A stretch of 64,000 nucleotides of DNA from the NCBI RefSeq assembly GCF_002854065.1, contig NZ_CP024147.1; one strand, written 5' to 3'. A program made the position numbers. The stretch is from Escherichia coli. Lineage in GTDB: Bacteria > Pseudomonadota > Gammaproteobacteria > Enterobacterales > Enterobacteriaceae. This document shows, one piece after another, positions 54,801-57,800 of the stretch (the stretch's first letter is position 1; each line of letters opens with the position of its first letter).

Positions 54801-57800
54801 GCCTCTTTAATAGGATTACATTCCATGAAAAGTAATTTTAAATTGCCAGGTATCGCAGGAATAACCTCAATCTCATTATATTCAATATGCACTTCTTTCA
54901 GATTTTTGGGGAACCATCTAATTTCCTTTATATTATTCTCACTACAATCAAAAAACTTAGCGGTGTCTGGTATTGTTGGTATTTCCGATAGCTTATTGTG
55001 ACAAATAGAAATTATCTTAGCCTTTGGCGGAAATGAGTCAATATGCGATATCAGGTTATTATTTACGGAGATCAGGGTAATTCCATCAGGTACTTGTGGA
55101 AATTCTGTAAGGTTATTGAAATCGACTTCTAATTCTTTGCATGATTCGGGCACATGTATTGAATCAAGTTCATTTTCAATAAGGCTAAGCATTTCAATCC
55201 ACTCGGGAAGAGGCGGTACAGAACCCAAAAATAGGGATGATAAGTCAAGTTCATTATTGTGGAGCTCAACACATTTAAACATTCTCAGCAATGCCCTATC
55301 CACATTTTCTTTGAAGTCATTGGATGCGCCTTCTTTGACTGAACTAGCCCAGTCACTGAAACCTTTGCAAAGTCTGGCATCTGTAATTTTGGTTAACTTG
55401 TCCAGCAACTCTGCAATATTGGTCGATATAAACTCTAATTTATGTCGAATGGGTAAAGTCCCTTCCCCCTGACTTTTTTCTATCGTGATAGACCCCGTCT
55501 TATCATAAGCCCCATAATTTTCAAACAATAGAGTATAATTACCCGGTGATGCTGCCAACTTACTGATTTAGTGTATGATGGTGTTTTTGAGGTGCTCCAG
55601 TGGCTTCTGTTTCTATCAGCTGTCCCTCCTGTTCAGCTACTGACGGGGTGGTGCGTAACGGCAAAAGCACTGCCGGACATCAGCGCTATCTCTGCTCTCA
55701 CTGCCGTAAAACATGGCAACTGCAGTTCACTTACACCGCTTCTCAACCCGGTACGCACCAGAAAATCATTGATATGGCCATGAATGGCGTTGGATGCCGG
55801 GCAACCGCCCGCATTATGGGCGTTGGCCTCAACACGATTTTCCGCCATTTAAAAAACTCAGGCCGCAGTCGGTAACCTCGCGCATACAGCCGGGCAGTGA
55901 CGTCATCGTCTGCGCGGAAATGGACGAACAGTGGGGATACGTCGGGGCTAAATCGCGCCAGCGCTGGCTGTTTTACGCGTATGACAGGCTCCGGAAGACG
56001 GTTGTTGCGCACGTATTCGGTGAACGCACTATGGCGACGCTGGGGCGTCTTATGAGCCTGCTGTCACCCTTTGACGTGGTGATATGGATGACGGATGGCT
56101 GGCCGCTGTATGAATCCCGCCTGAAGGGAAAGCTGCACGTAATCAGCAAGCGATATACGCAGCGAATTGAGCGGCATAACCTGAATCTGAGGCAGCACCT
56201 GGCACGGCTGGGACGGAAGTCGCTGTCGTTCTCAAAATCGGTGGAGCTGCATGACAAAGTCATCGGGCATTATCTGAACATAAAACACTATCAATAAGTT
56301 GGAGTCATTACCTAATTACCCCACCTGAAACATTGCTCTCTCAATAACTTAAATTCTGACAGCATATTCAGTAATTTGCCGTCTTCACTAATTGGTGTAA
56401 ACTTACCATTTCCAAGACAACTGACTAACTCACTTGATAATTCATTTATGATTGCATCATCAGATACTAACTCGTGTTGTTTTATCGTAGATTCAGTATT
56501 AGATGTGACTTTATTTAATTGAACCGACTGAGTTTTTAACGAAAGATCATTTAATGGAAACATTTACACTCCTGTTTAATAAATTATATTGCCCAGGGCG
56601 CATTCTAAAACACAATAAAATTACCACTATCAAAAATCGCTCATATCCATAGCCCGGAATATGAATAAAAACATCAACAAAGATTAAATTATCCAGAGGT
56701 TACTGTTGCGTCTGTGGTCGTAACAACATCCGACGTGGTGATGTGTCAAATGAGACACTCTGATGATCAGAGGGTTTATCGTGTATACGGATCGTGGATG
56801 GCAGAAAACGTTCAGGATCAGGTATCCATTTTAAACCAGATAATGAGTAAGTTTTCCCCATCCATGCCCCACGCGGTGAGATCGGATGTCATTAAAAAAG
56901 TCAGGTCAGCAGGTCAGTATGGGAAGGCGAACAACTCGCAGGAATGGGTGCGCTAAAGTTGCTGGATGATAAACATGGCGAACTGAAATCAATGCGTACC
57001 GTGCCAAATTATTTACGTCATGGTGTCGCCGGTCTGATTTTACGCCACATTTTGCAGGTCGCCCATGACAGATGCCTTAATCGCCTGAGTTTAGAAACGG
57101 GTACACAGGCTGGATTTACGGCCTGCCATCAACTTTCTTTGAAGCATGGTTTCGTTGATTGCGATCCGTTTGCTGATTATCAATTTGATCAACACAATCG
57201 ATTTTTATCATTGACGCTATGCGAAAATAATGAATTGCCATGAGCCAGACGCAGCACATTCTTGCATTCGACGTGCTGCGCCTTTATTTATCACCAGCAG
57301 GAAACGCCTTGTCCATAGACGCCACTTCTACATGCGCCACAAGAAACCTCTATTCCAGTGACACAATTACGCCTAACTATTTAATTCTTACCATCTATTA
57401 CGACCCTTTTGACTATGTCAGAATATTTATCATAATCAGCGGAATTCGTAACAATATATTTTCGCTGCGATATTTCATAGGTAATATCTGTCAAAGCCCA
57501 CGGCATTAAAAACTCCTCTTTAATAGGATAACATTCTATAAAAAGTAACTTTAAATTGCTATGTATCGCAGGGACAACCTCAATATTATACTCGATACGT
57601 GCTTTCTCCAGATGATTTGGGAAGTATTGAATTTCTTTTGTCTTATTATCGCCACAATTAAACAGCTTAGTCATCTCAGGTATTGCTGGTATTTACCATA
57701 TTTTATTGCGATAAATAAAAATTTTCATAGCCTTTGACGGAGATGAGTCAACACGCGATATCAGATTATTATCTACGGAGACCTGGGTAATTCCATCGGA

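Follow-up and report, generated by a model that had tools for sequence, protein, structure and literature searches.

The window analysed here is a 64,000-nucleotide stretch of Escherichia coli contig NZ_CP024147.1, and this report concerns the interval 56714–57243 within it, where two short plus-strand open reading frames (ORFs) lie between yedK and fliE/fliF, flanked by two broken minus-strand copies of a leucine-rich-repeat (LRR) gene. Our analysis indicates that this interval consists of two non-functional fragments of different origin, the 3′ end of a phage-type integrase gene and a 5′-truncated pseudogene of the GNAT-family acetyltransferase gene yedL, which were adjoined by a segmental tandem duplication. 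We give this reading a probability of roughly 0.93. The features that carry it are the following.

56714–56956, plus strand: ORF1 (80 aa, GTG start), the frame of the integrase remnant, carried past the joint into yedL sequence, where it is out of frame.
56732–56905, plus strand: copy 1 of the intG-type integrase C-terminal remnant, residues 378–434 and the position of the former stop (by BLASTP, and by tblastn at 56747–56902).
56910–56914, unstranded: novel duplication joint, placed by three-way comparisons (integrase side CAGGT(TAC), yedL side CTGGT(CAG)).
56914–57243, plus strand: 'yedL, codons 51–159 with the native stop, read as a 5′-truncated pseudogene from tblastn, PF00583, the Prokaryotic Genome Annotation Pipeline (PGAP) and the ratio of nonsynonymous to synonymous substitution rates (dN/dS).
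56944–57243, plus strand: ORF2 (99 aa, ATG start), inside the yedL fragment, its ATG made by an Ile62-to-Met change (ATT to ATG).
57247–57290, plus strand: terminator-like hairpin with a U-tract that follows the yedL stop codon (predicted folding energy −14.7 kcal/mol, z −3.4).
58711–58827, plus strand: copy 2 of the integrase C-terminal remnant, adjoining fliE (tblastn, 90% over 39 aa).

The downstream fragment was identified with the 159-aa K-12 YedL protein, taken from the DH1 record, as a tblastn query against the full window. The sole significant match lies at 56914–57240 and covers YedL residues 51–159 in one frame, with 96 of 109 residues identical (88%, E 4e-64), while residues 1–50 of the full-length query found no match anywhere in the 64 kb. 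The GNAT profile PF00583 (Acetyltransf_1; cutoff 20.7 bits) recognizes both the 113-codon open stretch at 56902–57240 (34.8 bits) and ORF2 (25.2 bits), and of its 116 positions these cover 38–107 and 48–107, respectively, compared with 24–116 in intact YedL. The fragment therefore carries GNAT-family content by profile, as the first-pass annotation of this DNA had proposed for the region. A complete single-domain GNAT fold, which takes up about 150–160 aa in YedL and YsnE and includes an N-terminal strand/helix segment, is not present in it. Residues 4–156 of intact YedL align with the 159-aa solved GNAT protein YsnE (PDB 1yx0), an end-to-end sequence match. Within the aligned block the window reads LRHGVAG at the position of K-12 LRRGVAS, a segment that we take, from general knowledge of GNAT proteins, to belong to the acetyl-CoA-binding motif A (x-x-x-G-x-G/A after strand 4). 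A single-sequence AlphaFold model of K-12 YedL, made for the lost secondary structure, reached a mean predicted local distance difference test score of 42 and was unusable.

K-12 yedL (b1932, GNAT, 159 aa, a homolog of Bacillus subtilis YsnE) belongs to the same family and sits in the same yedK–fliE neighbourhood as the window fragment. Over codons 51–159 the two share 88% amino acid and about 95% DNA identity, with like stop codons and downstream hairpins, and a contiguous DNA match to K-12 at 95.3% runs from yedL codon 50 through fliE. However, unlike the K-12 gene, the window fragment has no promoter, start codon or codons 1–50, and what precedes it is an integrase remnant rather than the yedK–yedL intergenic region. 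No full-length yedL with its own start stands directly 3′ of yedK; the 5′ 150 nt and the upstream region are missing.

ORF1 has a different source. It gave no BLASTP alignment with YedL even at E values up to 100, and it matched no GNAT family in Pfam or NCBIfam. Instead, its residues 7–63 align with the C-terminal end (residues 378–434) of an integrase of 434 aa encoded by Escherichia phage IdasGreatGrand (72% identity, E 7e-27 by BLASTP). When a frame built from the remnant of the cattle strain 140 and the second copy in the window was compared with phage genomes by tblastn, 174 records were returned, and the matches listed carry integrase annotation. The closest known counterparts are intG, a defective integrase remnant beside fliE in K-12, and phage tyrosine integrases such as that of IdasGreatGrand, whose last 57 residues match ORF1; copy 2 stands beside fliE, like the RefSeq entry 'integrase, incomplete'. 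A full-length tyrosine integrase with its catalytic domain is not found in the window, which holds residues 378–434 of 434 and no other integrase part. About 13% of the phage protein is thus left, and copy 1 has no stop codon of its own and reads into yedL. In copy 2 a 12-bp deletion at 58824–58835, just 3′ of the tblastn span, removes the old integrase stop region; the same deletion is found in copy 2 of strain 140, whereas copy 1 retains that region.

The joint between the fragments could be placed closely by comparing the window with the phage and with K-12. Around the integrase stop the phage reads ...ATTAAACAAGCATAGTCAACAGGTTACAAAACC..., and copy 1 in the window retains ...ATTAAAAAAGTCAGGTCAGCAGGT before it continues as yedL CAGTATGGGAAGG..., where K-12 yedL has ...CTGGTCAGTATGGG. 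From these alignments the crossover lies within GGT (56912–56914), 9 bp past the former integrase stop and at yedL codon 50/51. Sequence comparison between the two copies agrees in position: 56313–56898 and 58246–58832 are collinear and 95% identical, and this similarity stops at 56898, just ahead of the yedL fragment.

The position of the joint accounts for the geometry of the two ORFs, which the ORF calls confirm to lie in different frames with a 13-nt overlap. Because the integrase frame crosses the joint out of the yedL frame and runs on until it meets a stop, it yields ORF1, while the ATT-to-ATG change at codon 62 supplies the start of ORF2. The truncated yedL copies in the window, in the related genome CUWW06 and in strain 140 all carry this change (56944–56946), whereas three intact yedL genes do not; it probably arose once and was inherited.

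Comparison with related genomes places the fragment pair in a series of gene orders. RefSeq gives yedK–yedL–LRR pseudogene–fliE for K-12/DH1. In strain 140 the order is yedK–yedL (159 aa)–espR3–hypothetical protein (partial)–GNAT (missing N-terminus)–espR4–integrase (partial)–fliE, and the junction sequence of this strain groups with O157:H7/O55:H7 genomes. CUWW06, which is 99.9% identical to the window, has yedK–LRR–hypothetical protein (missing N-terminus)–GNAT (missing N-terminus)–LRR pseudogene–fliE. There PGAP labels the ORF1 equivalent 'hypothetical protein; incomplete; missing N-terminus' and the yedL fragment 'GNAT family N-acetyltransferase; incomplete; missing N-terminus'. Other haplotypes are an O121 genome that has no yedL and SC418, which has no LRR gene.

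The arrangement in strain 140 is that of a tandem segmental duplication, with adjacent direct copies and a novel joint. Its two units occupy positions 2356–4313 and 4314 to about 6257 of the strain 140 locus (L003), a period of about 1958 bp, and meet where the 3′ end of the integrase remnant (int') abuts yedL codon 51; in the window the left unit is without its yedL part. The pseudogene pair in strain 140, O157:H7/O55:H7 and CUWW06 matches the window in the position of the joint and in both fragments. Strain 140 keeps an intact upstream yedL and intact espR3 and espR4, whereas in the window lineage yedL is gone, IS1 splits LRR copy 1 and a stop codon interrupts LRR copy 2. Since yedL to the left is complete in strain 140 and both integrase remnants are cut at the same 5′ point, we infer that the region had already decayed when this segment was duplicated, and that no second integration took place.

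To count the int'/'yedL junction, an 80-nt probe across the joint was matched in a single piece to 5426 complete E. coli genomes. It was present in 343 of them at 96–100% identity over the junction, of which 24 matched at 99% or more and 319, mostly O157:H7/O55:H7, at 95–99%. Among the junction matches listed, most are annotated 'hypothetical protein' followed by 'GNAT family N-acetyltransferase'. An earlier count of 477 genomes, made at 80% or more coverage of 56600–57400, was too high, as it joined pieces that occur in another order, for example in loci where yedL is followed by int' (L005-type). In the same set of genomes the yedL 5′ segment is found in 1290, and the yedK/LRR joint without yedL in 387 (at least 80% of the query), a figure that was not checked piecewise as the junction count was. 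The pseudogene pair, whose two pieces RefSeq marks 'missing N-terminus', is thus common, already annotated and descended from one event. The literature on EspR3/EspR4 and yedL returned virulence-gene surveys and unrelated matches, and no account of the int'/'yedL joint was found in it.

We then turned to selection on the fragment, estimating dN/dS by the Nei–Gojobori method. Between the window fragment and other copies the ratio ranged from 0.55 to 1.1, and it was about 0.9–1.1 in three of four independent comparisons, each with 12–19 substitutions. Between the 3′ parts of intact yedL genes it was 0.12–0.24. The yedL remnant therefore evolves neutrally, with dN/dS near 1, unlike K-12 yedL, and this argues against a maintained acetyltransferase function. 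Promoter and terminator scans gave nothing above shuffled expectation, and the 350 nt ahead of the ATG at 56944 contain no promoter-like match; the hairpin at 57247–57290 had escaped the simple terminator scan owing to its loop size. An Rfam scan of 53500–59500 returned no match. An AGGA motif touches the ATG at 56944 immediately, with zero spacer.

These results can be set against the view of the first-pass annotation, that the two ORFs form a single GNAT gene, about 170 aa in full length, broken by a frameshift near 56944–56956, with ORF1 as the N-terminal and ORF2 as the C-terminal part. The 13-nt overlap in different frames and a summed length near that of a GNAT protein would fit such a gene. 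However, ORF1 resembles neither YedL nor any GNAT profile and matches the integrase C-terminus instead; the YedL homology begins 30 nt upstream of the ORF2 ATG, already in the ORF2 frame, and residues 1–50 were not found in the window. In a frameshift pseudogene, homology to one protein would continue across the switch. Because the upstream part is integrase and the GNAT homology runs in a single frame from codon 51 to the native stop, we give this view almost no credence. The comparison with the yedL ortholog that had been proposed as a check, made here with K-12 YedL, shows no switch within the GNAT homology. Nor is there a single frame covering a full-length homolog, as only residues 51–159 are present, and the expected length fails as well, YedL having 159 aa, of which the window keeps 109 codons. 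What stands is the broader picture of a decaying accessory islet in which a GNAT gene and two LRR genes are broken. A programmed −1 ribosomal or transcriptional slippage could in principle fuse ORF1 to the GNAT frame at the A-run ATTAAAAAAGTC (56891–56902), since six A residues lie just ahead of the joint and a −1 shift there enters the yedL frame past its TAA at 56893–56895. The run is not conserved, strain 140, with its O157-type sequence, having ATTAAACAAGCC at that place, and slippage was rejected on this ground. The fusion would moreover join C-terminal pieces of unrelated folds behind a promoterless 3′ integrase fragment, and we regard it as vanishingly improbable.

It is unlikely that the joint arose by integrase-mediated recombination at a secondary attachment (att) site in yedL, through a second integration of a related LRR element or a site-specific rearrangement. 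The crossover falls 9 bp after the integrase stop, within the 29-nt block CAACAGGTTACAAAACCTACACCTGCATG that is probably att-related, and CTGGTCAG in yedL stands opposite CAGGTTAC on the phage side. Yet the shared sequence at the joint is only 3–4 nt. Strain 140 has a complete left yedL, with codons 51–159 duplicated and not split, which is predicted by duplication and not by simple insertion; and the common 5′ cut point of both integrase remnants, in collinear sequence of 95% identity, implies that the integrase was dead before it was copied. It is very unlikely that the ATG at 56944 opens a functional 99-aa GNAT-derived protein, possibly an acetyl-CoA-binding or regulatory mini-protein. Its frame is open to the native stop, the terminator-like hairpin and the motif-A region LRHGVAG are retained, and the truncated copies have the ATG in common, unlike the intact genes. 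Against this, the ATG is yedL codon 62, so that the product, which had also been raised as an alternative start of the gene, would start 61 residues into a single-domain fold of 159 aa; AGGA has no spacer before it; promoter-like matches do not exceed those in shuffled sequence, with none in the 350 nt upstream; dN/dS in the window lineage is close to 1; PGAP calls a pseudogene; and common descent of one junction explains the shared ATG. That either the C-terminal fragment from codon 62 has a selected role, or the joint records secondary att use in yedL by phages of the fliE 3′ end, we consider highly improbable.

Several points nevertheless weigh against two dead fragments joined by duplication. 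The substitutions behind each dN/dS value are few, and the absence of the yedL 5′ part is a statement on the 64-kb window, not on the whole genome. The fragment keeps a 109-codon open frame, its native stop, a terminator-like hairpin and an ATG at codon 62, so that a short product is conceivable. The truncated and full yedL of strain 140 differ mostly at synonymous sites, with a ratio of 0.14, which could mean constraint, although gene conversion from the intact copy could explain this value equally well. Finally, the mosaic identities of the LRR copies, described below, are compatible with more than one exact history of the islet.

The order of events that best fits the duplication would be as follows. 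The yedK–fliE interval is probably what remains of an old integrative element at the fliE 3′ end, namely an LRR gene of effector type and the final ~57 codons of its integrase. In an ancestor with the order yedK–yedL–LRR–int'–fliE, an illegitimate unequal exchange at the GGT microhomology, from 9 bp past the integrase stop to yedL codon 50/51, would then have duplicated a unit of ~1.96 kb, 'yedL(51–159)–LRR–int', giving yedK–yedL–LRR–int'–'yedL–LRR–int'–fliE, the order still seen in strain 140. The second yedL copy would on this account never have had a promoter, a start codon or the first 50 codons. In the window lineage, a deletion of ~630 bp between short imperfect direct repeats probably removed the intact upstream yedL at a later time. 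IS1 would then have entered LRR copy 1; in LRR copy 2 the reading frame is broken by a stop codon. The features of the islet that bear on these later steps are listed here.

53901–54572, plus strand: yedK, SOS-response-associated peptidase, the left core-genome boundary (ORF; RefSeq annotation of CUWW06).
54598–54620, unstranded: deletion joint in place of the intact yedL, matching K-12 sequence both just after yedK and just after yedL.
54647–56563, minus strand: LRR copy 1, an EspR3-like leucine-rich-repeat gene of the type III secretion system effector type, split by IS1 (translation; identity to CUWW06).
55545–56312, plus strand: IS1, 768 bp, with the 9-bp target duplication TAATTACCC at 55536–55544 and 56313–56321.
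57381–58496, minus strand: LRR copy 2, of K-12 yedN/yedM type (DUF5503), a pseudogene whose frame is interrupted by a stop codon at 57693–57695.
58830–58858, unstranded: phage-identical 29-nt block, overlapping the last codons and the stop of fliE.
58846–59160, minus strand: fliE, the right core-genome boundary (ORF; RefSeq annotation).

The loss of the intact yedL can be read from a BLASTN comparison with the K-12 locus (L002). Window positions 53800–54620 correspond to K-12 2973–3793 and follow K-12 to 51 bp past yedK; from 54598 onward the window follows K-12 from 89 bp past yedL, with 54598–55544 corresponding to 4421–5362. The K-12 segment of about 3794–4420, which holds all of yedL, is absent. 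The 23-nt overlap of the two matches corresponds to a direct repeat, imperfect and about 20 bp long (CA[C/T]AAGAAA[C/T]CTCTATT...), that flanks yedL in K-12 (L002 3771–3793 and 4421–4443) and is present in one copy in the window. It is therefore likely that yedL was lost here, or gained elsewhere, through recombination between these ~20-bp imperfect repeats. The neighbouring yedK product has 223 aa in the window and 222 aa in K-12.

LRR copy 1, when IS1 and one target-site copy are taken out, becomes an ORF of 1140 bp whose protein is identical to WP_122998998.1 of CUWW06, and it shares about 94% DNA identity with espR3 of strain 140. The inserted element is a complete IS1 by its length, its insA/insB-type ORFs (55600–55875 and 55794–56297) and its target duplication, and its matches overlie IS1-family transposase annotation. 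Since IS1 is found at this site in 0 of the 5426 complete genomes, the insertion is recent and strain-specific. LRR copy 2 is 95% identical to the K-12 locus, and PGAP marks it 'internal stop' in CUWW06. The 3′ two thirds of the two LRR copies are 79% identical (54598–55544 against 57332–58254), whereas their 5′ parts with the upstream sequence reach 95% (56313–56898 against 58246–58832). Because of this difference the islet is a recombinational mosaic of diverged alleles, EspR3/EspR4-like in copy 1 and yedN/yedM-like in copy 2.

At the right edge of the islet, the 29-nt block at 58830–58858 recurs unchanged directly after the IdasGreatGrand integrase gene (about 1668–1698 of the phage locus, L006). 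On the opposite strand the phage encodes ...MSMQV*, the C-terminus of FliE. The block is likely an old prophage end or att block. These matches suggest that IdasGreatGrand-type phages use the 3′ end of fliE as their attachment site and that the yedK–fliE islet is an old prophage end.

The remnant itself is ordinary and was already known as RefSeq pseudogenes, so that it matters little beyond correcting the frameshift guess. It records one haplotype of the variable yedK–fliE islet of E. coli, and it may be mildly useful for reconstructing the origin of the espR3/espR4 pair and as a hint of a phage attachment site at the fliE 3′ end. Elsewhere in the window, a minus-strand tRNA cluster, Leu(taa)-Cys(gca)-Gly(gcc), lies at 35688–35989 and appears unrelated to the yedL remnant.

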